DNA from: Psammoneis japonica
Taxonomy: Eukaryota
Assembly (NCBI GenBank): GCA_008632985.1
Contig: QPGO01000028.1
Span: forward strand, 367,598-431,597
Direction of reading: 5' to 3'
Length of the DNA: 64,000 nt
Part shown: in pieces, positions 16,748 through 46,647 of the stretch
How positions within the stretch are numbered: position 1 is the first letter of the stretch
Layout: each line of letters begins with the position of its first letter
Program-made: the position numbers and the translations under genes
Notes under the pieces: model-generated
The model's database searches: none
What the model was told of the DNA's origin: nothing
What the model saw: the letters and a program-made list of their open reading frames with translations, nothing else

Positions 16748-17144
16748 TGCACTGTGCTCAAAGAACAAGTGCAAATGAAAGTGCAGCAGAACAAATCATG
16801 AAAATTGGAAATTGCAAGATTGGCTTTTGCTCTGCGATTTTGGGTTTCTCCGAATGAGCTCTCAATGGCGCAAAGCATTTGCACTGCTCCTGCAGAGCAA
16901 AAGCCTTTTGGAAAATCCAGCCATGATGACAGCATGTCCACAGATGCAACCAACATTGACATCTTGTGTGTCATCATTGTCCATCGATCGTGTTTGCAAT
17001 TTTAGACATCTGACCAATTTTGTGTGATCGATCGTCTGCTGACCTTTGCACAAATCCACAATTGTCGCGCGATTGACATTTGTGCAATGATGTGCAATCA
17101 TTGCGAACATGCACAATTTCTTCCACTTGACAATGCACACTGCA
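16748..17144 (-). repeat. Solo LTR related to Gypsy 2
   Basis: Diverged reverse-complement match to 22911-23297; TG..CA ends; flanked by GCTG on both sides (16744-16747, 17145-17148), a probable 4-bp TSD. Confidence 0.8.
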
Positions 17145-17359
17145 GCTGGACAATTGTGGCAGCTGCAGTGTGTGGTGTCTTGCAAAAAGGCAAAAAAATG
17201 AAATTCGAGTGGGCGAGTGCTGGATGCCCCGGCATGCTGTGTGTGCACGCCTCTCTGTGGCTTTTTGTTGGCAATCTCAAGATCCAACACTCCAGCTTTC
17301 CAGCTTTGGCTTGAAGTTCCTTTGGCCTTGGATGATTGATGGTTGGAGCACACATCAAT

Positions 17360-18039
17360 CAAGCATGACACCACCACTGGAGAAGAAAGCAATTGAAAAA
17401 GAGCACAGCTGCTGGAACAATTTCATTCCAGATTTGACATTGCTGTTCCCTTGCAGTTTGGAGTTTTGGTTGCAACCAAGGCAGACAAGCGGTGGCCTGT
17501 TGTTGAGTTTGGATGTGGCAACGAACGGGTGGGACGTCATTTGCCTCTCCTGGAACAAATTCAACGCATTGGCCTGTGACTTGAGCAACAGAGCCATTGA
17601 CCACAACATCGCCAAAGAAAAGGAAAGTGGCCACCCTGATCCAGTTACGTTTGAACTGTGCAATGTGGGGCGGGCCCAGCAGGTGAAAGACCTCATCAAA
17701 AAGGCCAGCCTTGAAAGCAATGGAAACCTGGTGCTGTGCAATCATTTCTTCCTGCATGCTTTGGATGAAACCCAGGAGGGGACTTTCTTGATGGCCTTGT
17801 CCAAAGCTGCCATGACAGGTGACAAGCTCTGCGTGGAGCACAGGTGCTTGTTGGATGCCGCCATGGACCATTTGTGCAAGAACCGCTGCAGAAGATGTGT
17901 CAACACAGATGAGTTGGTTGAGAAATTGGACCGACTGGATTTTGATGTCATCTGTCAGATTACAGGGCAGGGGATGGCAAAGCACAAGGACAAAGATCCT
18001 TTCATCAGCCACATTGTTGCAGAGAAGCATTGGGATTAG
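17360..18039 (+). pseudogene. Class I SAM-dependent methyltransferase-like gene relic
   Basis: EFGCGN motif I at ~17503-17520 (frameshifted), then FFLHA, GDKLCVEHR, CRRCVN and GQGMAKHKDKDP, which read as Tyr->Cys/His versions of a methyltransferase family. Confidence 0.6.
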
Positions 18040-18429
18040 AACAACACACACAAGAGCTGTGGCTTGCTTCCTTCTGGAGACCTTTCGTCTTTCTCAAACT
18101 GTTGGTTTTGCTGCTCAGATGTCATGATTGCCTCAATGTTAGATTGGTGCGACTTGCAGGCATCCAACAGGTCTAAGACTCACAGGTTAAAGCACTGCAT
18201 GAGCTCTTGATTTGGGCACTGTCGTCTTCTTGATGATGCCATCCTGCAGGGCCCCAGAACAACAAATTTTAGCAAGCCCTGTAGAAAATCTCCCTTGCTT
18301 GTGTCTGCTTCACTCTCTAGATTGATTGCAGAGATGAAAAACATCCAATCTGAAAAAATGATGCAGGGTGGCTCACAACTCACAACTGAGTTTCCATGGA
18401 TTGCTTGCACAGTTTTAGCATGAAAGAGG

Positions 18430-21400: not shown

Positions 21401-23297
21401 CTGCTGCCACAAGCCAAGTGGAGTGCAGACATGCTGCGCCGCAATGGAAAACAAACTTCTGTCCACAGTGGAAACACTCAAGGAATTCCAGTTTGGCCAA
21501 CAGATTGACACACGCACAGATCACACAAGAATCTTGCCCACAAGAATTTCACAACAGACAGAGTCATGCATTGACATCCAACAACAGAAGAACACTGCTC
21601 CAAAGTCATTCACCTTGAGGGCAGGGAAAACGTCATCACAGATGCAACCAGCCAACTTGCTGTGAAGAAAATGGGGAACCCATGGAAAACCTCAGCAATG
21701 AAGAAGAACTGGCTGACAAGGTTGCACCCAAATCCTGCAACAATGTCTTTCTGTTGATGTGCAAAGTTCTTGACACTGAACAAAAATGAGAGGGTGAAGA
21801 CATTTTCTCCAAATTGTTGAACACAACACATCACACAAAGACTTTTGTGGAGGCCAGCAAGATCAAATGTGCTTGCATGTCTAAAAGAACAAAATTGTTT
21901 CACCAAAGATGTTGCAAAAGACAGTGACAGACTGGTGTCACATGCAGCTTCTGCACCCCGGCACCCGGCACAAGTGAAACAGAAGAGACGACATCACAAC
22001 ACTCATGGCAGTCTGCCTTGTGTGAAGACACACATGAAAAGGTGTGTCGAAATGTGAGACATGCCAGAAATTCAAAAAGAAAAAAACAAATGCTGACATT
22101 TGCCTCCTGAGTGCACTGAATCAGTGCCATGGAAAGACCATGTGTGGATCTTGTTGGGCCATGCAAAATGCATGGCAAGGGAAGAAAAAAAACCTGAAAT
22201 GATAGATCCAGCAACAGGAGGATGGTTTGAAGCAGTGGAAATTTCCAAGTGAGGAGCCCACAACTGTTTCTGGACTGTTGGAGTGAAGTTGGCCAAGCAG
22301 ACATTCTCAGCCATCATCATTGGTTGCTTGCAATCATGGAAGTGAACTCATTGGACATCAACTCAGAGCTGTGGTCCACGGTGATCATGGCATGAAGTAA
22401 ATGCAAGCCCACAACTGCACAAAATCCACATGCAAATGCCACAATTGAGTGTGTGCATCAAGCACTGGGCAATGAGCTGCGTGCATTTGATTTGCAAAAT
22501 GCCCCCCTTGATGCACAGAATCCATTTGAAGGAATGCTGTCAGCAGCTGCTTTGCAGTGCATTTGACACAGCAGCATGCTGCACCAGCACAATTGGTCTT
22601 CAACAGACATGTTTTCAACATCCAACATGTGGCTGACTGGAAGTTCATTCAAAGACAAAAACAAGACACAATGAATGAAGACAATGCCAGAGAGAACACA
22701 TGGCACACTCCACACACATGAAAAGATCCTGCTGCCAGAGAAAGACTCTAAAAAAATGGAGCAGCCCTGTGCTGGACCCCACGTGGTGACAATGGCACAC
22801 ACCAATGGCACAGTGCAGATCAAATGTGGTGATGTCATTGACACAGACAATGTCCATTGTCAGACAACTCCATTCAATGAATGACTCCGATGTGCAATTG
22901 GGGAGGTGACTGCAGTGTGTGGTGTTGACCAGAAGAAATTGTGCACATTCACAAATGCATTGTGTCATGTGTGTCAATTGCACGATGATCGTGGATGTGT
23001 GGGAAGGTCAGATCAACCACACAGAATTGATCAGATGTCTAAAATTGCAAACGCCAGTGTGTGGTTGACAGACAATGCTGACACACAATGTGTCAATGTT
23101 GATTGCATCCGGACAATCTGTTGTTGCAATTAGATTTTCTGAAAGACCTTTGCTCTGTGGGAGCAGTGCAAATGCTTTGGGCCATTGAGAACTCCTTTGG
23201 AGAAACCCAGAATCACAGAGCAAAATTTAATCTCATGTTTTCCACTTTTCAAGATTTGTTCTCCTTTTGTTTGCACTCATTCTTTGAGCACAGTGCA
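18430..23297 (+). mobile_element. Ty3/Gypsy element 2, near full length and heavily degenerate
   Basis: Partial 5' LTR ending at 18560. Protease ILLNSG (~19890). RT FIQPKKNGRV, PLPKIQD and RTCVDD (20889). RNase H PVAFC..K, LLSTVETLKEF. Integrase PWK..CVDL, GPHVV..HTNGTVQI. PPT ggggaggtgac before the LTR at 22911. Confidence 0.85.
22911..23297 (+). repeat. Gypsy 2 3' LTR
   Basis: TG..CA termini, follows the PPT; its 3' end matches 18490-18560 and the solo LTR at 16748-17144. Confidence 0.82.
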
Positions 23298-24199
23298 GGA
23301 GATTCTTTGGCACTTCTGTTTCTTTGCAAACATGAAAGGCAGTGACCTCTGCTTGCTTTGCACAGCCCATGGCACCATTGAAAATCTTGCAAAATGTGCC
23401 AATCAAGTTCATCTTGGCAGCCAAACTTGGACATTTGGAGATGGCAACACTGAGCAATTTGGGAGAGTCAAGTCAATGCCTGGACTGAGAGAGCATGAGT
23501 CATTTGGCATTCTCACAATCGCACCCCCACCTTGATCTGCACTTACATTGGAGCTTTGGCATCTTGCACCCAGCCTTGAACTGCTCTGCAATGACAGAGG
23601 GTGGTTGGCAATGCCCACGACACTCAGACGACATTGGACACATGGTGCATGATGACAGCAAACAAGATGGTGACAAAAAAGGTCCCAAACAATGGTGCTG
23701 GAAATTGATGAAAATGGCAGTGTTTAGTGGTGCAATTGTTGGAGGTGTTGCAGTGCTTTTTTTTGTGTTTTGCAGTTTAGAGGAGGAGCTCTGATGATGC
23801 CAAAGAAAAAAGCTCCAGTGTGCCCCACACAAATTCTGTAATGCACATCTTGCTGACATTGAAAGCTGCAGTGGGCAGGTCATTCCTGTTTGGACAGTGG
23901 GATTGCTCTCAAGTCATGGGCCACACTTGTGCTGCAAGCAAGCTGGGCCCCTCTGCCACATCATGGAACAACAACAAAACACCTTTGGCACATTGTCAAA
24001 ACTGTTGGCGAGTGTTTCTGATGCACCAGCCACCTCTGCTCTGTCAGTGCAAATGGTGTGTGCATCATCCTTCTCATCATTGCTTTCATTGACATCATCA
24101 GTCAATGTTTTGTGAGTCACAGCATGGTGCAAGCCCTGCTTGTGCATCTGCAGGATGTCAGTTGTGCCATCAAGGATTGGGCTCCAACTGGCAATTGTG

Positions 24200-26300
24200 C
24201 AGTGCAGTTGTCCTCATGTGCAATGTCCCCCACCCATGGCACCCATTCAAAGATTGCACAATCATGGCAAGCAAAACTCTCATCACTCCAGGCTGCTCTG
24301 TCACTGACACTGGCCCAAGATGTGAGCTCACCCCCATCACAGCACCAACTGGCACCAACTTCATGACAATGGCAATGGCCATGTTTGCAGCAGCCCATGA
24401 TGCTGTTTGCCCTGCATCCCCACCTCCTCATGCTGCTGTGCATGCAACTGGCTACCACACCTGTGGGAGATGTCCCAGCCCCAACATTGCAAGTGAGGCC
24501 CTGCCTCCAGCCTCTCCTGCCTGAGCAGCCACACTTCCTCTTGTGCCATCCCTTCTGAGTCAATCTCTGTGTCCACCACCCACTCTTCCTCCAAATTGGC
24601 CTCACACACCTCCTGACAATGGCACCTGACCAGCCAACCAGCATCCCAGCCCCCCCGCCCTTGCCCATGCATTGGCCACCAACCTGACAGCATGATGCCA
24701 ACAACAACTTGATGAGGCATTTCAACAAAAATGGGCCAATTCCAAGCCACTCCTTTTGCAAAATTCCATGGCAGAAGTTTGTTGGCTCAGACAGATTTTC
24801 CTCAACAAGACAGCCAACAATGCTGTGACAAACTCCAGAACAACCCTGCATGCATCTCTCCCAGCAGACCTGCAAATCTCAACTGTTGAACACTGTTTGC
24901 ACACACATGACAAATCAACTGGATGCCTGTTGCAATGAAGCCATTGCCCTGGCAGTTGATGCTGCCAATGCTGCTGTTGCCTCATGTGATGACATCTTCA
25001 TTTGACAATTCTGAGTGGGGCACAATGATGCCCAAAATCAACAAACGTCTCCTTGCAGGATGTTGCCAGAGATTGAGGCTGGCCTGTTCATTGTCCTCAA
25101 ACAGATCAAATCTGCTGTCCAAGAGCACAAGACCCACACAGACACAGCAGCACCCAATGGCCTTCACCAACTTGGGGATCTCACCAGCAGCCAGCAGCAG
25201 TTGAAAAAATCTGGGAAATCGCACAACAAAATTCACCCAGGAGATGACTCAGGAAATGAACCTCCTCCATGCTTGCCTGGAGGCAATGCAGGACATGACA
25301 GAATCTGTCATTCAGAGCAGGCTGGTCCATCCATGGCAAACATGATGGCAAGCAGAGGCTTGACCTGCAAGGTGTGGGCAACAGATCCACTGCCCTCCTT
25401 TTTCCATGGATGCACACATTGACAACCCCATGCATCCTTGTTTGTTGCAACTGATGAGGAGCTTGTGGACACCCTGTGCAAACAGTTCAATGGTGTGATG
25501 GCTGAGATGGCTCAACTTGTGGCACAGCAATGTGACACTGTTGATGCCATGACAACTCAAGCAACAGAGGTGCAGAAGGTCTTGTTTGCCATGTGGCACA
25601 TGGCAAAGAATGGGGCAATCACAAAAAGAGCTTCAACCATCTGCCAATCAATGAAAACCTCACACTGGAATTTTTCAGCTGACTGACTCTTTCCACAAAT
25701 CCCCAAAAAGCCATGCACTCAAGGACATTTGCGCACACTGCTGTGCCATGTCCAATTCCAATGGCAACTTGAGCACCTGTGACAACACCATGGACAACTG
25801 CATGTTGCTGCCGCCCCACCCTCCATCTTGTCTCTCCATGCACCAGAGCCCTCCACTTCACTCCCTTGCCTGCTCTCTCTCCCCAAACCAATGCGTCCCA
25901 TCAGATGCCTTTTTCCATCTCATGCTGCAATGCAGACTTCACCTTCCAACCTCTCCCAACCAATCTGAGTCCATTCATTGCCCCTCCAGCAGCAGTGGCA
26001 CCACTGATCCCTGTGGCAAGCATGCCTTCTGCTGTTGCTCACTGGCGCACAAAACCACAATGTTTGGCCTCTCTGCACAGAGCAACAATTCTTCTGCCAT
26101 CCACCACACAAACCTGCAAATCTTGTCCCAACACTCTCCCCTCAAGCACCTGGCTGACATTGGTGTCAAACTCCCCCCCCCCATGCTGCCAGGCCACCCC
26201 AGCAGCACAACAGGGGGCCTGCAGAGCCTCACCAGCCTCACAGAGTCACTTTGTCCCTTGCCAAAAACTGCGCGCTCAACTTGCTGCTCCCTCATCCAAA
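24200..26300 (+). pseudogene. Possible non-LTR (CRE/RLE-type) retrotransposon relic
   Basis: F...LQCRLHLP...C....DPCGKHAFCC and LADIGV in ORF 25748..26494 resemble the CCHC/RLE C-terminus. Very degenerate. Confidence 0.35.
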
Positions 26301-26646
26301 AACCAGCCATGTCCCACCTGCATGACCCAATTGTCATGTGTGTTGTGTCGGTCATTTCCACTCGACTTCACCCTCCTTGCCATTTCAATTGTCGCAGACA
26401 CGAAGCCGCCCCATTCCTGTGCCCTCGTTTGTCGGAAGTCGAACGTGGCCACGATCACAATGGACAACATCCGACAATGTGGAACTCAAATTGACTTGAT
26501 GAATTGTGTGTTGTGCAAAATGATTGCTGCAAGCAGGGATTCAGCTAAGTCTCTGGTCAAATCTAAATCAAGGTTCATGCGCTGGACTTGTTGGAGGGAC
26601 TCTTTGGCATTTTTGATGCCGCACTTGACTGGCACAGTTTGACCAG

Positions 26647-28686
26647 TCATGATTGAAGGGAAATGATCATCTTGGGCTTGGTGCGCATTTGCACACGACC
26701 TTTTGTAAAGTTCTCTTCAAAGCATGGATTGCATCGGTCCGTCGCAATTTGGGCTCCTCTTCCCCGCTTTGGAGGGCGGCAATCCACAACTGTGTCCCCG
26801 CTCGCGCTGTGCATGGCATGCTGTGCACAGACATTTTTGCGAATTGTCACCAAAATCGCGCATGTGCATGGCATGCCATGCACAACTCAATTTTTTGGCG
26901 CCTTTTGGTCACCCTGTCAATCAACTGCTTTGAAGTGTCTGGAAAGACCTCATTGTGTCAAACATGTCAGACGCCTTTGACGTTCTCATTGACCCACTTG
27001 AAACGGTTGATGTGGCACACGTGCAATGAGATTCAGCGATGCACGCAGAAATGATGTAGAAAAATGCTTGTGCAACTCCTCGCACAAAAGCTGCGCGTTG
27101 GCCTCGCCAACAAGTGACTCCACTTCCAAGGTCATTGGAACAAGAAAGCTGCCATTTTAAAGGCTGTCCATCAAACATGCTAGCAAGCATTGACTCATCG
27201 TCAACAAACGCTATCCATGTCCTGCAGAAACGAGGCACTTGGAACTTGAGTGACTCAAACCTTGTGCATGGCATGCTGTGCACAACGTAGAATTCTGCGT
27301 AAAAAATCCCGCCAAAATTGACCAAATTCTGTGGCATTAAACAGCCATGTAAGCCCCATGGCAGAAGCTGTCCTTTTCAGCCTGTTTCGACCGTCGAGTG
27401 TGCTGAAAGGTTCGGCATGTCTCAAGAAATGTAATGTCTCGGGGAAGTTTCGCGACACCTCTGAAACATTGTGCATGGCATGCCATGCACAGTGCGCGCG
27501 GAGTGGGGATGTGCTCCTTCGCCTGTACATTTCTGTGCTTGCCAGTGCGAGGTTTGAACCGCGCCAAGTGCTCACCGATTTTGTCACCATTCCGCAAGAG
27601 TTCTACACACCACTGCAATTCCCCAGTGACAAAGAAGTCAAGTTCACCACTGATTTCTTCTCCGTTCTCTCCGGCAGCAAACGCATTAAGCTCCGGAATG
27701 AGACAGTTTGAGTTTGTTAAGTGCATTGACATTGCTTCGTTGAAAACATGCTGAAAAGCTGCCTCCTTTGGAAAATCGTCCTGAAGACTGTCACGCAAAC
27801 GGGAAGCTGACAGCTTCTGAACGGACAAAGTGATCAAGTCATCAAGGCTGTTTGGTGCAGTCAATGCTCGCAAAGGAAAACATCTGAAGTTGTAGAACCA
27901 AAATGCAGCTTGGCAACTGAAATTCCCATCCCGTCCAAGGATTCCGGCTCGGGCACACGGAACCAACGCGTTGTCGACTACTCCACGCCCCGTTGTTGTT
28001 CTATCTGGCGTCAGGATGGCATCCACAATGCGAAGACGACCGGCTTCTGGAAGATTCTCTGGGAGCTCATAACATCTCTTCAGCAACAGAGTGCAATCAG
28101 ACGATCGAAGCTTGGTTGCTGCAGCAGCTTCGTCTTTGTTGTCGACACCCGTCTCCTTGATCCAGTCCTGTAAGAGACGCATTCCTTGCACAACCGCGCC
28201 GATGTGATGTGAGTTCTCTGCCGAGAGCTTACTTAGCATTTTGATGTTACCCAAAAACATTTCCCAATTGTGCATTGCAGGATCTGCAACATGCATCCGA
28301 TAGAGCTGATTGAGTTCATCTTCTTCGATGGACGTATGCGGACAATGCGGCAAAACCGAAAAGTGAACAGGACTTGTGTGGGTGGATAGATCATAAGTTG
28401 CAGCGATAACAACGTAAAAGGTTGTCTTACAAGTCACCGGCAAGGCTTTCACAAGTGACTGCCAGAACCCCCAATGCTCCTGTCCACACCAATTTTGAGC
28501 ATCGTCTAAAAGAAACCACGTCTCTTTATATTTTCGGCTTTTGCTTTCTTGTTCACCGTCGCTGCCGCTGCTGCCCTCTCCCTCCGTGACGCCGAGTTCC
28601 TCCATTCGCTTTTTGACGTCCGCCACTTGAGTCATCACATTTAAGACCCGGTGCAACACCTTTGTGCCATCCCTTTGTCCCCGCAA
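26647..28686 (-). pseudogene. Crinkler(CRN)-like NTPase + PD-(D/E)xK nuclease gene, split by a MITE and lacking its 5' end
   Basis: Walker B-like WFLLDDAQ; EAAFQH.F, GELDFFV, WCVELLRNGDKIGEHLARF. The C-terminal VVDCR..R...F resumes at 26790 on the far side of the MITE. Confidence 0.7.
26797..27502 (+). mobile_element. ~705-bp non-autonomous TIR element (MITE), copy A
   Basis: Termini cccgctcgcgctgtgca... / ...tgcacagtgcgcgcgg; whole-length inverted match to 34316-34463 + 43362-43926. Confidence 0.88.
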
Positions 28687-29399
28687 CTGACATGTCCTTC
28701 AGCCAATCAAAAATGTCCTCGGCCGGTGACGGTCGGCTTCAGTCGTCACTCTCGCCAGTTATTTACAGAAGCAGCTAGCGAAGCAGTGATCTCCATTTTG
28801 GGAGAAAAACAATCTAGTGGATGTGTTTCAATGATCACATCTCCGCCGCAAACCCCATCATCCGAACAAACCCTCCGTGCCTTGCCCCCCTTTTTATGTG
28901 ATGAATTCGTTTCACTCATTCTCTCTGTCGGAAAATGCCATCTGAGCAAAATGGCATAGACTTGGCACAAATTGCGTGTCGCATGATGGTCAATTGCTTC
29001 CACAGATCCGGGTCATCAACTGCGTTCATCAACGCACCATCCGCAAATTTGGATTGCCGCAAACACCCACATGAATCCAATGGACAAAAAAAGTGTGTGT
29101 GTTGTGAAAGTTCACATTGCTTTAGCGACAAGTGACATGGCTGCTGTGCTCGCCAAAATTGCCAATGTTTTTAATCGTGAAATGTCAATGGAGAGTTTGT
29201 TGCGGAACGACATTGACTGATCACAAGTGATCATGAGCGAGCCAAACTGATCAAAACCAATCAAAAGCAATCACAGACAATCAAGACAAATGAGTGTCCA
29301 CAGACAAACTGAAACTGCAGCCCTTCAAATCTGACCATCACCCTCTGCCCAGTTGAATGACATCATTGACGGAAAATTGTTTTGTCCTCCGTTCAACCA

Positions 29400-34211: not shown

Positions 34212-35511
34212 GGAAGTTCGTTGGGAGTTTGTTCACTCCTCTCTCTCCACTCTCCACTGTTCAACGCACGATCTCGATCAAGGTGCGCGCTCCGAACGCA
34301 GCATCCGAAAAATACCCCGCGCGCACTGTGCATAGCATGCTATGCACAACGTTTCAGAGGTGTCGCGAAACTTCCCCGAGACATTACATTTCTTGAGACA
34401 TGCCGAACCTTTCAGTACACTCGACGGTCGAAACAGGCTGAAAAGAGCAGCTTCCGCCATGGGATTCGATATAGTGCGCCGCCGATTCCAATCTGGCACA
34501 GACCTGGACTGCCGCACCAAGAACCACCAAGAAGAAACTTGGCATTAGAACACTTGGGAGTCTCACAGAGCAGAGCTTTCGGTGACACTCTGCTCCGCAC
34601 AAGGGGGGTTGGGAAAAACCCATGCCCTCCGCAGGGTCTCGAGTCTAAACTCGAGGGCTCCCGAATGGGACCTGCTGGGATCCACTCAGGGTGATTCCGG
34701 CTGAGCCTGGGACGAGGTGCCTTCGGCGCTGCGCGACGTCGGCACCCCGCACGAGGTGAGTCTCGAACCGGAATCGCAGACATCGCCAGACGCTGTTCCT
34801 TTGGTTTCGTAGCAGTGCGTCATCATGAGCAGATCATTGGTGGAACTGTTCTGGACTTTGCCGGTGGACTCCCGTGGTCGAACCAGCAAAGTTGAGCACA
34901 AATCCAGGGAGTGGTGGGTGGGTTGCAAAAAGAAGCTTTTCCACTGCTTTGGTGTGATCCAGTCACGTTGATCAGGGTTCCTGTCTCAACAAAGATGGAA
35001 AAGCAAAGGCAAAAACGCCGAGCAGGTTTGACCGGTCACTGTGACCGGCAATCTTGGTCCAGAAGTGCCCTCTTCTGGAAGGGCCACAAGTCTGAGGTCT
35101 TGTCAGTTGGGGAGTCTTGCACGGCACGGTGCGTCTCCATCTAAACTTGGGCACGAGGAGGATTCGACACAGTGCGCCACCGACTCCAATCTGGCACAGA
35201 CCTGGACTGCCGCACCAAGAACCACTGAGAAGAAACTTGGTGTTAGAATGCTTGGGAGTCTCACAGAGCAGAGCTTTCGGCAACACTCTGCTCCGCACAA
35301 GGGGGGTTGGGCAAAACCCACACCCTCCGCAGGGTCTCAAGTCTAAACTCGAGGGCTCCCGAATGGGACCTGCTGGGATCCACTCAGGGCGATTCCGGCC
35401 GAACCAGCAAAGTTGAGCACAAATCCCCCCCTGTGAGAACTCCCCGGCAGTGGCCACCTGAAGAAAACGATCTAGAAACTTGAGCCGTCGGATCGAGTCG
35501 ATGATGTTGAC

Positions 35512-36814
35512 TCACATTTCCTGTGTGTATCTCAAGAAAGAAGGAAGGAGCAGTGAGACATCTGCACAGTGCTGCCTCATCTTGTGTGTGGGTCAGGCAG
35601 CTCCAACTTGTTCCTTCTTCTTCCATCGATTCACCACGTCCATGTCATCCTCTGAAACATTTCGCGAAATGGCTCGGGAATCGGACACCCGCCGAAACGA
35701 CCTGCACACGTCGCATTTATCCTCGATGTCACTGTGGGAGGTGATGTCGGCTCCAAACAGAGCCGGGTGGTTGTCGAACAGCTCTGACAAAACGAGGTGA
35801 AGGAGGGAGTTTAAATCCCGAGTGCGAACCACCTTGCCACCAGCATCGGACATGGCAGGCCCTGGGGTGCGTCCTCGCGAAGCCTGTAACGCCACAACTG
35901 CTTGGGCCCATTGCTGCAACCGAATGCCGGATCCGGTCACATTCACACTTGGGAGAAGGTGCTGCCGCTCTCCGTGTTCTCCCTTGACCCGACCAAGCAA
36001 TGGGATCACTGCGTGCGAGTCGTGGAGAGGGAGGTGCTCCCTCAGGGCTCCCAAGTCGATGAGCAACCCTTCGGGGCCCCAGAGGGAGAGCGCGAAGCTT
36101 GTGGCAAAATGGGGCCCGCCAGTCAAGTGTCTGAACCGGTCCCCAGGAGTTGTGGCTCAAAGGAACTTTTCTTTGAGCCTTGGGAGAAGGTGTTGCATGA
36201 TCTGGGCCAAAATGGCCCTGTCGGGTCTCCAGTCCTGACCCATTCGCCTCTTGCATCCTGTCATGAACCTCTGGAACCACAAGGAAGCGCACGGGTCTTC
36301 ACATGTCCAAAGGTGTTGCTTCCCTTCGAGATCCGCTAAAGCAAGAGCTCATGAGTCAGCAGAAGCTGAAGCCCTCACCTGGTTGGAACAGGCAGTTCAA
36401 AGTTTCCTGACACAGTGTCGAGCTGAGTGCAAGACCCCGAGTGCCGTCCGGGAGAGGTCAACGCCAAGACGATCTGCATTGCAACCTTGCACCGTAGCCA
36501 CAATGGTCATGAGGAGGAAGAGGCCCTGGCTCTAGATGAGGGCCGTGAAGTCCCAACCGCTCCGACAGGGCCAATCCCCGCGCCACCTTGGAGGCGTTGT
36601 TTTCCACCGCAGTGCTTTCTCTGCTCCAAAACGCATCCAGGTTTACCCGCCTGATGCAAGCCAGTGCCATCTCATCGCATGGGGAGGAGGTTCCCGGGTC
36701 TCTGTGTGACACAACTTGTGAAACATGCACGAATCGCACTCGAACGCCACCATCAGATGGTCTCCTGTTCGAGCTCGGGTGAACTTGTGTCAGTCCTGAG
36801 GCTTCCGAAACCAA
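35512..36814 (-). pseudogene. Tyrosine recombinase of the YR element
   Basis: IRRVNLDAFWSRE, LWGPEGL (LRGxEG-like), LLGRVKGE, RSFRR, VNRW and MRQHCAD (probable catalytic Tyr now Cys). Confidence 0.8.
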
Positions 36815-36841
36815 GGGTTGTCTTCAATTCGGGCTGCATCT

Positions 36842-39800
36842 TCACCCAGCTGCTCCCCGTCGTTCTTTCATTGGTCGGGCTGAAGAATCCCGCCCAGGTG
36901 GAACATCGCGCTTGCGCTCGAAGCATGACACCCTGGACACCATGCCTTGCGGCACGCGGGCCAGTCCCCAACACTGTGAACAAAATTGGCACAGAATGTC
37001 CCTCGAGTCCACTTCAGCATCCTCCCACATTCTTTGCAGCGTCCGCTCCATAGAGTGCATCTTTGGGGTTCCTCGAAGCTGCCACGGACTGTGTGAAATG
37101 AAGGGAAAAACAAGACCGATGAGAAGGGGTTCGAACATTTCACCAGGCCAAAAAGGCCCAGCTCCGGCCGGCACTGGAAAAACGATGTCCGCTGCCTTGC
37201 ACAATTGTTTTTGCCACTCGGGGGTCATGAGTCGGGGACACACAAAGATGTGAAATGACTCCTGGCGCTTGAGCCGTGCAATTCGCAATTCTTCGAGGGC
37301 CGCCCTAGCCGCAGCTGGGGGTGGTGCCCAAATCCAAGTCCCCGACCAGAACACGGGCATCTCGACTGCCTCACAAAGCAGGCAGTGCCACCCAGATGCG
37401 TCATGTTTCTTGTGGCACCAGTCCAGCGGTGAGAGCAGTTCTGCCACAGGTGATCCCGCCCAGGAGCGTGTCCACTCTAACAGCGAAGGGGCTCGCTCCG
37501 TTGCAGCCAGGTGAAGAGGCACGAATGAGAGCATCCTGGCTCCATTCATGACTCCTTCGGTCAGCGCGCCTCGTGACACTCCATCTGTGCCCTGGGCTGT
37601 CATCCGTTTGCCCGACACATGGACAAGGTGCAGCATGAAGCCGCACCTGGCCTCAAGCACCCTCAACCGAATCACCTGTTCCAGGAGCTTCGGATTCGAT
37701 GAAGTCCCCTCATACACGGCAATCTCTGAAACGGAGTTGTCAGTAAAAAAGCAGAGAGTGGCTCCTTCAAGCTCGCCGGATTCAGCCAGCTCCTGAATGG
37801 CATCGATTGTGTTTGACAGCTCCTTCCAATTCGACGAGTTTGACTGGTCGTCATCACCCCAGACGCCAATCCGGAATACAATCGCGCCGTCCTTAGTCTG
37901 GACTGAGGATCCCAGACCTCTTCCAGACGCATCGCCAAATCCGCGCAGGACCACCACGACCCTCGACGATCGGATGACCCTTGCTGTTGGTTTTTCGGGC
38001 TCTAGAATCCATTGTAGTGCTTTCAAGTTGGAGAATGAATGTGGCACTGCTCGAACCGACTCGGGGTGCTTGCCGTCTCGAAGGGTCTCGGTGAGTTCAC
38101 ATGGGTTGACTCCAAGCTTGTCTGCCTCATGATGAATCCACGATGCGCATTCCTTGTCAGCCATGGCCCACCCGTCTGCCTTTCGGTTGGGCGCCAGCCA
38201 TCCAAAGTCAAGTGAATCTCTTTGAGAAAAGGGGTTGGGAAAGGGTGGGTCATGGCCGCATGGACTAGAAAGCCCCGTTTCCGCTCGAGATCCTTGAAAC
38301 CAAAGTCCAGGAGGGCGAACTCGTCCATCCCGTCATGGTGAGACAGAAGAAACTTGATCATGTCCTTGCCCTTGTCCCACTTGGCCTGAGAGAGTGATTG
38401 AGTGACGTTTGGACCAAGGACACGAAAAACAGCCCCCGCCCAGGCGCCAGTCTCTTGCTGTGATGGGGGGCGGACCTTTCGAGGGGCGTTCTGGAGCCCG
38501 AAACATTGCAGCCTGGAAGCCATTTGATGGGCCACTTGCCAAGCCGCTTCTTCACTGGCTCCCATGCCTCGCAAGTCGTCAACGAAGGTTTTGATGTCAC
38601 CGGCGATGATTTTCAGCACAGAATTCCATTTAATCACAGCAGGGTCCTGAACTTTGTGGTTGGGATCCCCTGGTGGGTTGAGCAGGACTTTGTCGAAACC
38701 CATTGGATTTCCAGGGCGGCTGGGGTCGCCACGTGCCACTTCGTCCGCCCAGCAGCAGGTTCGCACCGCGTTGTGAGGGCTGGGCTTCATCCCCACAAAC
38801 AGTCGGTTCCAACGCTCCATGCCTGCTGGAGATTCATTCCCCACTGGGTGGGGGAGGTGAGCCCGAAGCGGCGACAAGTCGATGCCGGCATGCGGACGAA
38901 TCTTAGGGTCCACAAAAAAGTTGAGAAACATGTCCCCGAGATCAAAATCAATGGAAAAGGTAGAGTCGGTCATGCACCCAAGCACCGATGCCGCGGCAGG
39001 GAGGAAGAAGGAAGGGGCCCATAGAGCGTCATTGAGCCCAGACGAGGTGCCGTTGTGCGCCATTCTAATGTCTTCAATCACTTCCTCCATCCTTCCGTCG
39101 GGACCCGGGATCAAAGACACAGCCTTGGGCACCCAAAAACAGTCTGTGAGACTCATTGCTGGCCCAGCCTCAATGCACCCATGGTCCCGGACCTTCTGCA
39201 TTTTCGCAGCCATGCGCTGGACCTCGGTGGTCGAGCCACGAACACGTTGCCGCCTGCAATTCCGGGGAAGCGTGCCTCACACAAATGTGGGGAGCCCACC
39301 CCGTGCCACCTGGCGTTGCTCGGGTGAAGGCCAGCGCCAAAAGAAAAGAGATGACCCCCGGTCCCAGTTCCACCAAGAACTTGCCAGAGTCTGCGAGAGA
39401 ACGTCTGCGCCAAGGTTCCCATCCAGCAACAAAGATGGGAGTGGTGGGTCTCGGCACAACCCCCCCCCCCCCCCCCCGATGACTCAACAAGGAGTCCCCC
39501 AACCATCGCCGCCAGCCAACCAGGCGAAGTGGCCAAGCAGGGCCATGACAACTCCGCAAGCATCCCAAAAAAGAGCGTGTTGACCGCCGCCACCACCACC
39601 GGAGAGTGAGCACTCGCAGAGCTGGGAGGACAGGTCCAAATGTGGGAAACAGAAGGGTTGTGCGCTTGTCCCACAGGCGAAATGGCGGCAGTGCAGAGTC
39701 CCCTTTTGCCGCCTTGGCAGTGACAAGGGTCAGGTCAATCCATTCATGCGACAGGTGTTGGCCCAGAGCAGGTGGCCAAGTGGCAGTGGCTGGCGCAAGG

Positions 39801-39943
39801 ACCCGGGTAGACCCGGCCGCAGGGAGCTGCACTGAAGGTTGTGAGATGCCCCTCGATCGTTGCACAATGAAATGGTCCGTCACTGTGGTGAGGAGATTGA
39901 GAGGAATCAACAGCTTCAAAATCTCACCAGATGCCAGACCCAA
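36842..39943 (-). pseudogene. RT + RNase H of the YR element (frameshifted)
   Basis: DFDLGDMFLNF, GMKPSP and TFVDD (38023..39213). GFGDASG, SSNWKEL, FTDN, HVSGKRM and QGTDGVSR (36842..38164). Confidence 0.88.
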
Positions 39944-40701
39944 AAAATCCTGGGTCCGAAATCAAAGAGGGAAATCCCATGCGGCAAGGAGTTTGTCCTC
40001 AATCAAACTCCTTGGGATCCACCCCGTGTGAGATCGATGAGATTGGCGCACCACAGGTCACTGGGGGAATTGATCTGGGGAACTCGCCTGTCCCGCCAAC
40101 TTGTGGTCAATGACATGCCCGATGGATTGATCCAAGCCCCGGGTCACATCAGGGAGTGAGGCACCAACACCAAAGAAGGACGTGCGAAAGGTCGTGATGC
40201 CACCAGTCCCCGCATGGGCAAGGGTGGCGCAAGGTGGGTGTCGCAAACCCCGCAAGCTTCGTCTCGAGACCCGTCCGACCGGAACCAAGTGCATCAGGGA
40301 TTCGCACTCCAAACGAGAGATCCGCTCCAAAAACACAGGGTCCCCAGAGACCAAGATGACATTGCTAGATTTCGAAGCCTCAGCAATGCCGGACGACGAG
40401 ATGCACTGAAGCGATGCACCCACTTGGGCCTCAAAGAGATCTGTCAAAAGAATCTCCAACGGCGATGGCAGTTCATTGTCACAACACAGGACAACACGAG
40501 GCCACTCAGAGCACCTGAGAGCCAAAAGCCAAGTGGGGGGCCCAGTGCAAACAATCAAGCAGGAACCGCGGAAGGAAAACACTTTGCGGCCACGAATGAC
40601 GAGCCCTTTGTTTTCCCCTGGGGGTGACTCCTCCCCCATTGAGCTTCATTTCTTGGACTCTAAAGCCTTGAGCCGCTGGTTAACTTCCTTCAACTCCGTC
40701 T

Positions 40702-43130
40702 TTAGCTTGTTGACCTCCTGGTGAGCCATGTCCACTGAGCCTGTGCCGACTTTGCCTCAGTTCCTGCGTTCTTTGCTTTGTCCGTCAGAGCAGTCACCGC
40801 AGCTTGAAGGGCGGTTGCTGCCTCAAATCCAGAGTTTGTTGCAAGGAATTTCACATGCTCCGAGGCCATCGACGGGTGGTCCCTAAAATTGTGGGCCGTG
40901 CACTCAGCCATCATGTCCTGGGAGCGAAAAACCGCCCAAAGGATTTGGCTGCATGCTGCACCCGGATCCGTGCCCGCGATTGATGTGAAGACCCCAGATC
41001 GGACCTGATTGAGATCATCAAAAATGCGGTGCACTGGCTTTGACGTTAAAGACCAAGCCTGCTTGTGTGAAAACTTGCTCAACTGCACTGAGTTGTCGCA
41101 GGTTTCATCCATGAACTGGATCAGTCCCTGCACAAATGCCACCGACTTAGACAGCGCGTCTCGAACCACCTGACCCTCGAAAGACCCGCCAGGGATCCTC
41201 TGGCCGATGTCACTCAGAATGTTCCTTTCGACAGTGCCAATCTTTTCCACAATGAAGTGTTTGGTCCCTGTCGACCCAGTCGTCCAGTGGTCGTGTGTTG
41301 CCACCTTGTCCAGGAACGAAGGATGCAGACCCGGGGACTGGGCACCTTTTGCTGAACCCGAGTCGAGGATCCCCGGCATGCTGTGCTGGAAGCTGGCCAG
41401 AGTTCTTGCGTCCTCTTCTGTGCTGATCTTTAAATCCATGCGCTTGGACAAACCCGCCAAGAAATGGTGCAGTGCTGCAGGTTCGGCACCCACAATCCAG
41501 TGCAACAGCAAGTTTGCGTCCGTGAGGCAACCATGCGCTCTGGACGAAAAATGTTGGACCATCCAGGCTTGGCATTCCCCAAAGGACGACACACCTGCTC
41601 CCGAGAACTTGATCGCCGACGAGTCAGACTTGGACTTCAACTCGTTCACCGCTTGGCCAAGGTCTCGGACCCGATTCTCGAGCGATGCCGAGATTCCAGT
41701 CCCCAATCCACCACCCAGGCCTGGTGAGCCAGAGTTTTCCAGATTCTGGACTCCACTGACAAGCTGGTTGCACACCCTCAAGATCCCCGCTCTCAGAGAG
41801 TCCATGTCCCGTTTCGCGGCCATCCCCAACATTTGGGCTTGTAGTCCCTGAATGGCGGCGTTGACTCTTGAAGCCAGGCCATTGGAGCCAGCCCAAAAGT
41901 TGCTTTCCATGCACGACAACTCGGACGAGAAATCCCAAGGTTGGTGATCCAATGCACCAACAGCTGTCAAGTTGGCGAGTGTTCCCCAAATCGTCGGGGC
42001 TTCCACGCGCTGGTCAAATTCCGGCGGAGGGGAACCCAGAGAGGCGTCAAGCTGCTCCAGCTTTTGACTGAGAACGTTGATGAGAGAGTCCATCTCCTTG
42101 AACTGCATGCAGGCTTTGTTTCCCAGGTCACCAAGTGTGTTGTTTCCCGTCTCCGTCAAGTTGCGTTCAAGGGATTGGACCACGCGAGCCAGGGCTGCTG
42201 GGCTCTTGTTCGCCGCAAGGAACTGAGATGGGGTGGTGGAGATCACTGGTTGGTGAGGCAAGAATTGGCCAAACAAGGATCCCGGGAAGCCTTGCTGAAG
42301 GGGTCTTTCCTCTTGGCTGGGGTCTTGAAAGCCGCCGCCTCCTCATGCTGTTTTAAGGAGGCTCCGAACTCGTCCTCTGTGGGGCAGCGAGTTTCGCTGT
42401 TTTCCAGGACAAGGAATTGCTGGCGCCATCCCGCCAGAGTGTCGGTGGTGGACTCCCACTTCACTGACACATCCGCCAACACAAGCAATCCGTTCAACGC
42501 AGGTTGGCAAAACGCTGTGTCTGGTGTCTTCAGAATCGACACCATGCCGTTGGACGGAAGGCCTTTCTTCGAACCTTTGTGTTTGACCTTACAATCCGTG
42601 GCCTTCTTAAAACAAAAGGTTGCGCCCCCTCCAACAATGCCCATGCAACGCAAATTGTCAGCACCTTCCATCCAAATGACACGAAAACGAGGTGCATCAG
42701 ACGAAGGAGACGCACCTTCCTCCTTCATTGCAGACGCACCTCGAGGAGCTCCCTCATCTTTTGGAGCGAAGAAATCAATGTGAGGTGCACGCTCTTCAGC
42801 TCCTTCGCCTGCTCTAGATGGCAGAGCGTCAAAAGCCGAACCCGGGTTGGGGGAAATGACTTCCCCCAATTCAGCCTGCTCAATGTCCGAATGTCCGACA
42901 TCGCCGGTCATTTCGCCCAGGGTTGAGCCCCCGAGAGAAGGGTTCAAGCCCTCAACCCCCCCTTGATGACCCAACGCGGACGGTGGGGCCCGACAAGAGG
43001 GCGACGAAGGAGAACGAGTTGAGAACGGAGAGATGACATCCACCTTGAGCGTACGAGCGATGTTGACAAAGGCGCCGTCGTCGCCGGAGGAGAAGCAATC
43101 AGGCATGAGCGAGAAAAAGAGAGGGAGCAA
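40702..43130 (-). pseudogene. gag-like ORF1 of the YR element (frameshifted near 42260)
   Basis: ORFs 42243..43130 (C-x-G...FC....C...H) and 40702..42276 (coiled-coil rich) lie directly after repeat A1. Confidence 0.7.
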
Positions 43131-44029
43131 AAAGAAGCTTTTCCACTGCTTTGGTGTGATCCAGTCACATTGATCAGGGTTCCTGTCTCAACAAAGATGG
43201 AAAAGTGAAGGTAAAAATGCCGAGCAGGTTTGACCGGTCACTGTGACCGGCAATCTTGGTCCAGAAGTGCCCTCTTCTGGAAGGGCCATGAGTCTCAGGT
43301 CTTGTCAGTTGGGGAGTCTTGCATCGCACGGTACGTCTCCATCTAAACTTGGGTACGAGGAGGGCTTACACAGCTGTTTAATGCCACAGAAGTTGGTCAA
43401 TTTTGGCGGGATTTTTTACGTAGAATTCTACGTTGTGCATGGTATGCCATGCACAAGGTTTGAGTCGCTCAAGTTCCAAGTACCTCGTTTCAGTAGGACA
43501 TAGATAGCGTTTATTGACGATGAGTCAATACTTGTTAGTATGTTTAATGGACAGCCTTTAAAATGTCAGCTTTCTTGTTCCAATGACCTTGGAAGTGGAG
43601 TCACTTGTTGGCGAGGCTAATGCGTAGCTTTTGTACGAGGAGTTACACAAGTATTTTTCTACGTCATTTCTACGTGAATCGCTGAATCTCATTACACGTG
43701 TACCACATCAACCGCTTCAAGTGGGTCAATAAGAACGTCAAAGGCGTCTGACATGTTTGACACAATGAGGTCTTTCCAGACACTTCAAAGTAGTTGATTA
43801 ATAGGATGACCAAAAGGCGCCAAAAAATTGAGTTGTGCATAGCATGCTATGCACATGCGCGATTTTGGCGATAATTCGCAAAAATGTCTGTGCATACTGT
43901 AGCATGCTATGCACAGCGCGAGCGGGCCGGTAGGTGCCGTAAGGTGTACCTACACTAAAGTTGCACGGCCCAAAAAATAAGACGGAAGTAGAGAACGATC
44001 ACATCCGAACCAATCAAATCTCAGAAGCC

Positions 44030-44246
44030 CCTGCTCACGATGATCGGGGTTCCTGTTCCAACAAAGCTGGAAAAGTGAGAGAATAGAAAACCGAGTTGTT
44101 GACCGGACATCTTTGTTTGAAGGTGCCCTCCTCCAACACACGAACCTGGCATCGAATGATCGATGGGCAGGCTTGCTCTTAGCTTCGCGTGTCTCCATCT
44201 AAGAGGGTTTCTAATGTAATTCTAATAAACTTGGGTACGACGAGGG
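44030..44246 (-). repeat. Diverged relic of a YR-element A repeat
   Basis: tgatcggggttcctgttccaacaaagctggaaaagtg, gtctccatcta and taaacttgggtacga match blocks of 43127-43361 in the same order. Confidence 0.7.
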
Positions 44247-44480: not shown

Positions 44481-46647
44481 TTAACCTTGACGTGACCTTT
44501 TCGTACCGCGTTCGACTTCCTCCGAAGCAAATTCGTCTCCCTCGTCACGTTGATGCTCATTCTGCTGGAGAAGCAATTCCGTGAGTCTTTCACGATCCAA
44601 CAAGGATTCACCCTGCAGATGTCTTCTCGAAGGGTTTCCCTCGAGACGACGAAGCAATGATGCTAGCTCTGCACGATCCACGGCATCTGTCAAGGAGTGC
44701 TCTGTAGCACGCCTTCCTGGTATCTGCTCCATACCAGATAACTGCGGTTGCACCAGCATATTTCGTGACTGAAGAGGCAACCCTGCCGATGAGAAAGGAA
44801 GTACTGATGCCAGTGTCGGCATTCCAAGGGGTAATGATTGGCCTTGGCCCAGTGAGAACAACCCCGGATAAACGGCATACGGAGGAAATGCTTGTTGATT
44901 AATTGACTGTATTTGACTGGCAAGCAAAATGTCCTGCTGTTGCTGCAAGATCTGCTCCCTCTCCATTGCACGCAGCAACCGTTCCTGCTCGGCCCCTTCC
45001 TGGAGTGCCATCATCATTCTACGCTCTTGTTCTCGTGCTGAGGGATTTATGCTACCTCTGGCAGCTAGCATGTCGCTGGATAACCCCCGGAGATGCACCG
45101 GAAGCCGAGCGACTCCATCAACTCCGCTTGAAGACTCAGAAGATGGCATTGAGGCTATTCTTCTTGTGTCGCGAGGCAATCTCTGAAGATGCTCCGGGAG
45201 CCGAGCAACTCCATCAACCCCTCTTGAAGGCTCAACAAACGGCATTGAGGCTACTCTTCTTGTGTCATGAGGCAATCTCCGAAGATGCTCTGGAAGCCGA
45301 GCAACTCCATCAACACCGCTTGAAGACCGCTTCATTGGCACATTCGGACCTGGTTGACTTGTTTGTTTTCTATTACCTCCTCGCTGAACTTCCCAGGCAA
45401 AGCCCAGATCTTCTAGAATTTTGACTTTTTTCGAGTCTAGTCTCGATGGACGTCCATCGTCGAACGCTTTCTTTTCTTGCCGCTGAGTCGATACCCAGTT
45501 GGAGAGCTTCGGATTTGGCTATGCGAAGCAGGTGAAAGCCGTACATACAAACAAAACGAAGCAACAAGAAGCGTTATTGGAACAGGGCGCGACGGGGGAA
45601 GAAAAATATCATGAAAATATCTTGACACGCATCCTTACAGGATATCCCACTGGGACTTGACAGTGGCCATGAAGACTTTTGAACTCAATCAGTTGTTTAA
45701 TCCGAGTTCCCCAAGGTACGTGTCTGGGATCCTTTGTCGCCCAGACGAAACCGATTTCATTCAAGCGAGCGGCACGTTGAGGAGTCATTGGTGTAGATTG
45801 TGCCTGTATTTATTAGCAACAAGACAAAAGCAGAAGTGCATTGCAGTGAGTAACGACAATTCTACTTCTTGCGACACCGACACTTCCTGACCGGCATGCA
45901 GCAATAACACAAGAATCGATTTTGACAACATATTGTGACACATACGTTTCCTTCGGCAAGAATCTTATACTGTCGCCTCTGGGTCGAAACCCAAGAGCCG
46001 AGAGATCTGTCCTCCTTGTATCGATTTGGAACAAGCGTATGCCCGTGCTTTTCCCTAAATTCGACCAGTCTATCAAACATAATGTCCCATCGATCCTTAA
46101 TTTCACCATTTGGCATGACTTGATTTAAGGGATACTGAACCACTTTGCGTTTCTTTTTCTTCTTTTCTTCAGGCTTTGTTTCCTCGGTTGCAGCCGGTTT
46201 CTTATCCTCGTCATCATCTTCAGGCTCGTTGTGTTCCTTCTCTATGGCGGTGCCTGCGGCCTCCTTGTCAGATTTATCAGCGGCGGGGGCTTCTTCTTGC
46301 TCCTTTTCTCCTGCTGGACTTTGTCGTGATGAAGCGGTGGTGTCGTCACTTATCAGTATACCTGGAGGGCCGGGAGACTTACGTGACGAAGCAGTGGTGT
46401 CGTCACTCACCAGCCTATCTGGAGGGCCGCGAGACTGTCGTGATGGAGCAGTGGTGTCGTCACTCATCCGAGGGCCACAGGCTGCTGGAGCAGCAGTTAT
46501 ACTCTGGTGGCTCGTGGTCGCGCCCTCAATACTACCAAATCCCTCTTTGTTGCTGCCCTCCTCGAGCTGCTGAATTGCTGGTGATTTCGGGGCACTATCG
46601 TCCTCACGCGGCGCGCCACCGTCACCTTCCGGCGAGGAGGGTCTCAT
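44481..46647 (-). CDS. Helicase-associated (HA) domain protein, 2 HA repeats, ~634 aa; exons 46647-45946, 45803-45639, 45518-44481
   Basis: WDIMFDRLVEFREKHGHTLVP...LGSWVSTQR...RLNEIGFVW and WGTRIKQLIEFKSLHGHCQVP...LSNWVSTQR...LEDLGFAW. Two phase-0 GT..AG introns join three in-frame exons. Confidence 0.88.
45085..45325 (-). repeat. 96-bp coding tandem repeat (~2.5 copies; GVDGVARLPEHL...)
   Basis: gccgagcRactccatcaac recurs at 96-bp spacing. Confidence 0.9.
46315..46470 (-). repeat. 57-bp coding tandem repeat (~2.6 copies; SDDTTA.SR.S)
   Basis: gtggtgtcgtcact at 46337, 46394 and 46451. Confidence 0.9.

Follow-up and report, generated by a model that had tools for sequence, protein, structure and literature searches.

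How does the mutation load of a mobile element depend on position within a single insertion? The question is raised by a stretch of 64,000 nucleotides from the diatom Psammoneis japonica (contig QPGO01000028.1, positions 367,598 to 431,597; hereafter the window), in which a degraded tyrosine-recombinase retrotransposon of Ngaro-like type lies on the minus strand at 34464–43361 as one insertion of 8,898 bp. The insertion carries split repeats whose outer copies keep the dinucleotide TpA (TA) at sites where the inner copies have TG or CA. An earlier interpretation made from the letters of the window (hereafter the sequence-only reading) had proposed that mutation happened in situ after insertion and was weaker at block edges near genes, as expected for a chromatin-guided process. 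The explanation that we favour, and consider probable by a small measure, is that a Ngaro-like element inserted into a repeat resembling a miniature inverted-repeat transposable element (MITE), that it was hypermutated in place at TpA, and that the mutated tract ends 10–70 bp inside each end, so that the outer TA are spared.

Self-comparison of the window gave the layout of the insertion, which reads A1-[ORF1, ORF2, ORF3]-B1-A2-B2 on the minus strand, with the open reading frames (ORFs) enclosed by split direct repeats (Table 1). The two copies of repeat A (34925–35161 and 43127–43363) are 95% identical and those of repeat B (34462–34707 and 35160–35405) 92% identical. About 20 bases separate A2 from B2, and B2 carries about 177 bases (34701–34877) that have no counterpart in B1, the last 27 bases of which match 34878–34905 of B2. 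As delimited in the sequence-only reading, the outer copies are A1 at 43127–43361 and B2 at 34464–34707, and the inner copies A2 at 34925–35159 and B1 at 35162–35405; all of the word pairs that it had quoted from outer and inner copies are present. Its view of a single insertion with split repeats also held, and a copy of the empty site is present in the window at 26797–27504. This is the uninterrupted form, in inverted orientation, of a MITE-like repeat of about 0.7 kb (approximately 710 bp) that the insertion splits into a left and a right piece. There are four G at the empty site, two at the internal B1|A2 junction and three at each occupied joint; this count (4+2 = 3+3) would fit a conservative exchange with no target duplication, although for this one site a 2-base GG duplication is conceivable. 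As far as the available text of the two papers goes, Ngaro elements have the order A1-[ORFs]-B1A2B2 of split direct repeats (Hackl et al. 2021, PMC8547959; Szitenberg et al. 2014, PMC4157794), and in such elements A1 and A2 are identical repeats, as are B1 and B2 (Szitenberg et al. 2014, PMC4157794).

The insertion is strongly depleted of TA. Its observed/expected ratio (o/e) for this dinucleotide is about 0.11–0.12, against 0.36–0.97 in the gene regions of the window (0.5–0.97 in the neighbouring genes), with ratios of 1.35 for TG and 1.26 for CA; the CpG o/e is 0.69, compared with 0.75–0.82 in the flanks. Across the window, 49 of the 64 bins of 1 kb have a TA o/e below 0.25, accompanied by TG and CA ratios of 1.3–2.5 (hand count), and blocks with retroelement domains range from 0.00 to 0.23. 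The bins above this value are the gene regions at 12–16 kb, 31–34.4 kb and 43.4–48 kb, together with two partly depleted bins at 28–29 kb (0.35) and 48–49 kb (0.28). In this window, TpA hypermutation is confined to mobile DNA and the genes are spared.

The direction of the change was read from the two copies of the MITE-like repeat. Counting at pyrimidine–purine dinucleotides, here and in the repeats of the insertion, we found 29 sites with TA in the interrupted copy and either TG (14 sites) or CA (15 sites) in the intact one, and not one site with the reverse (p = 4e-9). Nine TA and 32 CG are common to both copies. The two copies differ at 49 bases, 33 of which fall at TA (the 29 one-sided sites plus 2 sites lost in both), 6 are of CpG type and 10 are of other kinds. 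The TG and CA outcomes do not form strand runs (16 runs, P = 0.65). The coding remnants of the insertion gave the same direction: at nine columns in which at least 70% of 36 homologues have tyrosine, the window keeps Tyr once and has Cys at three and His at two, whereas 267 of 356 columns of other conserved residues are unchanged. None of 80 related loci from metagenomes is hypermutated, all of them having a TA o/e of 0.40–0.84. With the 29:0 count, the change of Tyr to Cys or His and the normal TA content of relatives all on its side, the polarity assumed in the sequence-only reading, in which TA is ancestral and was converted to TG or CA, can be regarded as settled. Judged from the aligned copies, the changes appear to be almost exclusively A-to-G or T-to-C at TpA, on both strands. 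A mispairing modification of thymine would give a signature identical to that of adenine deamination. In the mutated MITE copy a pyrimidine precedes the T at 8 of the 9 kept TA but at only 10 of the 29 lost ones (hand count, p = 0.007), which hints that the mutator may have a wider sequence preference.

The paired repeats of the insertion bear on when the mutation took place. Over 237 and 235 aligned bases, the copies of the two pairs are 99.2–99.6% alike in purine/pyrimidine coding, so that nearly all of their differences are transitions, and TA losses account for at least 19 of the 29 mismatched bases. At seven sites one copy has TG and the other CA, the independent outcomes that the sequence-only reading had pointed to; TA is kept in both copies at three sites, CpG stands opposite TpG or CpA at five, and the other mismatched bases number five. 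Provided that the copies of each repeat were alike at integration, TA has since been lost at 12 of 15 scorable sites in the inner copies and at 7 in the outer copies. The loss in the inner copies (80%) is as large as that of the whole element when measured against its family, and most of the damage could therefore have arisen at this locus.

The DNA on either side of the insertion is nearly untouched. The interrupted MITE copy has lost about 2 of its approximately 40 TA (two TG/CA sites), and right beside the insertion its pieces still hold 10–16 TA per 200 bp; the mutated tract is thus bounded by the insertion and does not enter the flanking MITE DNA. Together with the seven opposite TG/CA sites, this supports the earlier proposal of mutation in situ, in that much of the TA loss would have occurred in place after integration. 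The MITE family is multi-copy, as judged from contigs of one DNA run (whose summed depth is not a copy number), and since the interrupted copy of this multi-copy repeat was spared, copy number alone is not the trigger. The ends of the MITE-like element are inverted copies of each other, three copies of a palindrome of about 22 bases lie inside it, and contig joints across the insertion site show additional empty copies elsewhere in the genome. Elsewhere in the window, an inverted pair at 1946–2358 and 4235–4647 (92% identity) has seven opposite TG/CA sites, three one-sided TA in each copy and eight CpG-type differences; loss is symmetric in this pair, in which no outer or inner copy is defined.

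We then compared TA retention between the outer and inner copies. Five sites (34470, 34472, 43212, 43332 and 43354) have TA in the outer copy against TG or CA in the inner copy, and none has the reverse (sign test, two-sided p = 0.0625); over the 15 scorable sites, 8 were kept in the outer copies versus 3 in the inner copies (Fisher p = 0.13). The TA kept only in outer copies lie 6, 8, 7, 29 and 149 bp from the nearest end of the insertion, and the seven sites lost in outer copies lie 64–159 bp from the ends. Within 30 bp of the ends, a cut that we set post hoc after seeing the data, the outer copies kept 5 of 5 sites, whereas the corresponding positions at the internal junction kept 1 of 5 (p = 0.048). 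At greater distances, 3 of 10 sites were kept in outer and 2 of 10 in inner copies (p = 1.0); the contrast is thus due entirely to the terminal 30 bp at either end. On its left the mutated tract ends between 34472 and 34528, and on its right between 43290 and 43332; each limit leaves a terminal stretch with no detectable TA loss (Table 1). Four TA are present in each of the two terminal 200-bp bins, where the interior has about 1 per 200 bp; these bins thus contain 8 of the 51 TA in 400 of the 8,898 bp (binomial p = 0.002, with the ancestral TA density of these bins not known). A G or A precedes the spared outer TA, the type most often lost in the MITE, and a pyrimidine precedes the T of the three TA kept in both copies (hand counts). 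Inner and outer copies have the same context, and local context therefore does not explain the sparing of the ends. CpG-type differences in the compared stretches show no protection of the outer copies, which lost three to the inner copies' two.

These observations can be joined into one sequence of events. A Ngaro-like element would have integrated into a MITE copy near genes, through a conservative exchange within a few consecutive G. A TpA-specific hypermutation of the host would then act in place, converting TA to TG or CA through A-to-G changes on either strand, and would remove about 80% of the element's TA. The tract would stop 10–70 bp inside each end, so that the outer copies keep the TA of their last 30 bp and the internal B1|A2 junction is converted. 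The target may be defined by the element itself, through its sequence, a transcript or a mark, with efficiency lost where element DNA lies on one side only. The layout, the direction of the change, the action in place and the sharp outer limit are borne out by the data, whereas we infer that the sparing of the ends is real rather than due to chance, and that it reflects recognition of the target rather than closeness to genes; recognition would presumably work via RNA, homology or a mark.

Several points weigh against this account. The edge effect rests on five sites of one element (p = 0.06, 0.048 with the post hoc cut and 0.13 over 15 sites) and is suggestive. A self-search of the window in purine/pyrimidine coding for pairs of long terminal repeats found no second hypermutated element with paired repeats. 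That A1 equalled A2 and B1 equalled B2 at integration is an assumption by analogy, which rests on published descriptions and on one relative (L017), the repeats of which are 99.87–100% alike over 1.3–1.5 kb; three related loci (L017, L014 and L055) were examined for repeats, many of which are 127-base assembly overlaps. The assembly of the repeats is itself not beyond doubt in A2: at positions 35084 and 35122, every aligned contig of one DNA run reads another letter (G and T), and either these contigs may be paralogous or the window may be misassembled in A2. Finally, the intact MITE copy is mutated though it is not an insertion of the Ngaro-like kind, and tracts are therefore not always limited to one element.

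If the in-place TpA hypermutation were real and the asymmetry between outer and inner copies only sampling noise, a ratio of 5:0 with a p value of 0.0625, a p value of 0.13 over 15 sites, the lack of any difference beyond 30 bp and a cut chosen post hoc are what might be expected. We regard noise as a serious possibility, albeit an unlikely one. Against it, all but one of the five TA kept only in outer copies are found no more than 30 bp from an end, and the two ends show a similar pattern; moreover, the outer-only TA stand in the context that was lost most often in the MITE copy, with G or A before the T, and those kept in both copies stand in pyrimidine context.

A chromatin-guided process that is weaker at block edges through protection by active neighbouring genes would agree with the position of the insertion between gene-like regions of normal TA content, and with the greater retention of TA in the outer copies. 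The nine TA kept in the mutated MITE copy, moreover, are all on the part that faces the less depleted side (0 of 12 versus 9 of 26, p = 0.036, post hoc). The scale, however, is one of tens of bases, not of nucleosomes, and more than 30 bp from the ends mutation is as heavy in outer as in inner copies. Two older blocks hold 0 TA per 100-bp bin right up to their borders at about 16.0 kb and 31.45 kb, which are sharp within about 100–200 bp and lie a few hundred bases from genes; any protection would therefore be either a lower rate that is overcome by time or one that reaches less than 100 bp. Changes of CpG type, as noted above, lack the outer protection as well. The sequence-only reading thus fares unevenly here: its weaker mutation at block edges is retained for the last 30 bp or so of each end, at marginal p values, and its gradient of protection by genes or chromatin finds no support in these data, so that we give this explanation little chance.

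The differences between outer and inner copies might pre-date integration, through editing of RNA or complementary DNA, or be inherited by way of a read-through transcript of a mutated parent. ADAR-type editing prefers U before the edited A, as stated in a preprint on the chlorarachniophyte Bigelowiella natans (Mettrop et al., bioRxiv 10.64898/2026.01.13.699255, 2026), and the replication model of elements of this kind is unsettled (PMC8547959, PMC4157794; both as far as the available text goes). Editing of RNA would act on one strand and be one-sided, whereas TG and CA are balanced here (14:15 in the MITE; o/e 1.35 versus 1.26 in the insertion). The MITE, which has no RNA intermediate, bears the same signature; in B. 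natans, according to the text of that preprint, mutations arise in integrated DNA during culture; and an inherited asymmetry would still require an end effect in the parent. With both strands equally affected, a DNA transposon hit as well and a pre-integration circle that has no ends, action on integrated double-stranded DNA is favoured; the end effect itself implies the integrated state for the same reason. We consider an origin before integration improbable.

Very slightly less probable still is that gene conversion or unequal recombination with a less mutated copy renewed the outer repeats, or that these repeats are chimeras of paralogues made in assembly. Related copies are many (635 contigs aligned at 80% likeness, 497 of them below 99% identity), and the two A2 positions that conflict with every aligned contig would be in keeping with such an origin. 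The outer copies, however, bear seven TA losses of their own and so do not derive from unmutated donors, and conversion restricted to the terminal 30 bp on both sides would be unlikely. The opposite polarity, in which CpG decayed by C-to-T change (deamination of 5-methylcytosine or a process like repeat-induced point mutation, RIP) and TA marks the more mutated copy, can be dismissed for this window, for although TG/CA pairs are equally expected from ancestral CG and five CpG-type differences exist, every repeat block shows a depletion of TA and not an enrichment, CpG is close to its level in the flanks, the 29:0 count in the MITE would need 29 double hits in an otherwise intact-looking copy, and conserved Tyr became Cys or His, not the reverse.

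To assign the element we relied on its homologues, since Pfam found nothing at E < 0.01 in the insertion, whether with ORFs of at least 70 amino acids (aa) or with all six frames read through stops as X. The three remnants (Table 1) have counterparts in the 80 related metagenome loci, with ORFs of about 760–790, 1260–1325 and 470–500 aa. Relatives of the putative reverse-transcriptase (RT) part at 38026–39276 reach 49–50% identity at best in proteins of 731–2085 aa, one of which is named from the diatom Cylindrotheca fusiformis. Motif boxes of RT and a D..E..D..H/D pattern of RNase H were read by eye in ORF2. The Pfam family RVT_1 was found in one ORF2 homologue (P0020) at E 1.9e-5, which is below the curated cut-off; of 36 family members, 1 has an RT match at E ≤ 0.01. 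In the family, ORF2 also has conserved regions of unassigned kind before the RT, at the N terminus, and after the RNase H. Pfam gave no match for ORF1 and ORF3 of the related loci, and searches of PDB sequences with profiles of ORF2 and ORF3 gave no credible match. A structure model of ORF3 from the related locus L003, folded with 29 relatives (predicted local distance difference test 79.8), matches Cre at E 1.2e-5 with a probability of 1.00, and also XerH, the Tn1549 integrase, lambda integrase and Flp; in an alignment of 29 sequences, R, K, RxxR and W are invariant and Y is near-invariant. On this model and alignment, ORF3 is predicted to be a tyrosine recombinase.

The element is best classed as Ngaro-like, a label that spans Ngaro or PAT; Ngaro is set apart from PAT and DIRS1 by the lack of a methyltransferase-like domain. 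It has in common with Ngaro elements of the DIRS order, such as those of Cafeteria burkhardae in the available text of PMC8547959, both the A1-[ORFs]-B1A2B2 layout and the three ORFs (Gag-like, RT/RNase H, which is putative here, and tyrosine recombinase). The Ngaro of this stramenopile, as described in that text, resembles the present insertion further in that both are inserted into another mobile element and both are G+C-rich relative to their surroundings. The family here differs in that Pfam sees its RT weakly and its recombinase not at all, in the conserved N-terminal region of ORF2, in the gap of about 20 bases between A2 and B2, and in the 177 extra bases of B2. This family of tyrosine-recombinase retroelements is abundant in metagenome contigs, where 471 of 599 matched stretches encode a relative. 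In the window itself, a stretch at 44035–44078 (extending to about 44200) is 86% identical to part of repeat A; it lies 0.7 kb beyond the insertion, just downstream of an ORF with a helicase-associated (HA) domain, and may be a remnant of the terminal repeat of a related element.

Other parts of the window carry the signature in different forms. The block at 16001–26800 has a TpA o/e of 0.00–0.12 and is the only block with low CpG as well (0.03–0.38); on its plus strand TG (1.7–2.5) stands above CA (1.5–1.9). Its appearance is that of an older block to which CpG decay has been added, with a strand bias not shared by the Ngaro-like insertion. The stretch at 27505–29000, with an intermediate TA o/e of 0.23–0.35, contains a minus-strand ORF of 453 aa without a Pfam family, and represents either an element mutated in part or a gene that the process has reached. 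Because two of the three stop codons contain TA, each of the six phases of hypermutated blocks is rich in long open frames (42 ORFs of at least 100 aa in 12.5 kb); ORF length is therefore no sign of a gene there. Among the content of the window are RTs of Copia type and ORFs with HA domains, both of which fit a diatom; HA domains are common in that group. Tandem repeats of 96 bp (45071–45358) and 57 bp (46325–46495), with three units each that are 63–82% alike, lie within such HA-domain ORFs. The neighbouring flavodoxin-like protein has a best identity of 61–65% among the matches listed (at least 120), where the organisms named in full are all diatoms: Entomoneis, Mayamaea, Thalassiosira, Seminavis, Phaeodactylum, Eucampia, Amphora and Epithemia.

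Table 1 Features of the insertion, its host repeat and the nearby block borders (window positions)
Feature	Position	Strand	Remarks
A1, outer copy of repeat A, 5′ end of element	43127–43361	−	holds 4 TA
A2, inner copy of repeat A	34925–35159	−	holds 1 TA
B1, inner copy of repeat B, directly abuts A2	35162–35427	−	holds 2 TA
B2, outer copy of repeat B, 3′ end of element	34464–34905	−	4 TA in 34464–34700
Internal sequence between A1 and B1			about 7.7 kb
Left terminal stretch, no detectable TA loss	34464–34527		TA at 34470 and 34472; first scorable outer loss at 34528
Right terminal stretch, no detectable TA loss	43291–43361		TA at 43332, 43344 and 43354; last scorable outer loss at 43289–43290
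ORF1 remnant, Gag-like by position only	40705–42342	−	32% identity, E 1e-47, to ORF1 of related locus L003
ORF2 remnant, putative reverse-transcriptase part	38026–39276	−	105 homologues, E down to 2e-98
ORF2 remnant, putative RNase H and C-terminal part, frame differs from RT part	36845–38332	−	44% identity, E 5e-105, to L003 ORF2
ORF3 remnant (predicted tyrosine recombinase), best-preserved piece	36479–36712	−	50% identity over 78 residues, E 1e-23, to L003 ORF3
Left piece of interrupted MITE-like repeat	34314–34463		95% identical to 27355–27504; nearly unmutated
Right piece of interrupted MITE-like repeat	43362–43926		92% identical to 26797–27356; nearly unmutated
Intact, hypermutated MITE copy (empty site)	26797–27504		TG/CA where interrupted copy has TA
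Older-block border	about 16.0 kb		beside DRG-type GTPase gene
Older-block border	about 31.45 kb		about 400 bp before start of flavodoxin-like gene

Fungi and animals are known to hypermutate invading DNA in a targeted way, the former by RIP and the latter through editing by APOBEC and ADAR enzymes. Like fungal RIP, the process seen here riddles mobile DNA with transitions at one dinucleotide, spares genes and kills the reading frames of elements. Its polarity is the reverse, however: RIP makes TpA from CpA, whereas the process here destroys TpA, leaving a TpA o/e of 0.00–0.2 in the repeat blocks, and raises G+C, and the host is no fungus. Nor is copy number alone a trigger, in contrast to RIP, given the untouched, interrupted copy of the multi-copy MITE. 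On these grounds RIP was rejected, as was decay of methylated CpG as the main signal, in view of a CpG o/e of 0.69 against 0.75–0.82 in the flanks. Animal ADAR and APOBEC editing likewise produces clustered transitions in retroelements, but those enzymes hit RNA or single-stranded complementary DNA and leave one-sided strand patterns; here both strands are equal, a DNA transposon is also hit and the tract keeps within the integrated copy's borders.

The closest parallel is the work on B. natans, in which a TpA-specific, G+C-raising hypermutation was first reported in 2026, in that one chlorarachniophyte (bioRxiv 10.64898/2026.01.13.699255). According to the text of that preprint, TpA changed to TpG or CpA de novo in integrated giant-virus and virophage DNA during mutation accumulation; 230 of 231 mutations were A-to-G or T-to-C, all of these at TpA and on both strands, and adenine deamination was proposed. 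The same text describes the hypermutable virus region as single-copy and the coding sequences with low TpA as enriched in RT and DDE domains. Both systems thus show the same TpA transitions on either strand of integrated DNA, with scarce TpA and abundant CpA plus TpG in clustered 1-kb windows. They differ in host (a chlorarachniophyte there, a diatom here) and in targets, which are giant-virus and virophage insertions there and retrotransposons and a MITE here. Compared with the figures in the preprint's text, the depletion is deeper here (TA o/e 0.00–0.2 versus a Rho of 0.45 in their region of nucleocytoplasmic large DNA virus origin), and 49 of 64 kb are affected, against 124 clusters in their whole genome. 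De novo events were seen there, whereas here action in place is deduced from the divergence of split repeats. As far as its available text goes, the preprint states nothing about tract ends.

Full-text literature searches found no report of TpA hypermutation in diatoms. That a diatom shows deep TpA hypermutation, with limits that can be drawn to a single insertion, is the notable result, and the locus supplies its own controls: the split repeats for action after integration, and the interrupted and intact MITE copies for polarity and for the limit of the tract. Read more broadly, and here we are tentative because we doubt it more than we believe it, the locus may reveal a TpA-directed hypermutation defence of diatoms, a mirror of RIP that is insertion-precise within tens of bases, is guided by element sequence (RNA or homology) rather than by spreading chromatin, and needs element DNA on both sides. 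The process hides diatom transposons from domain searches, by turning Tyr into Cys or His, and inflates ORF calls. Sparing of the ends, if true genome-wide, would constrain how the mutator finds its target. The signature, if truly present in both a rhizarian and a stramenopile, would make this an old defence of the lineages that unite stramenopiles, alveolates and Rhizaria (SAR).

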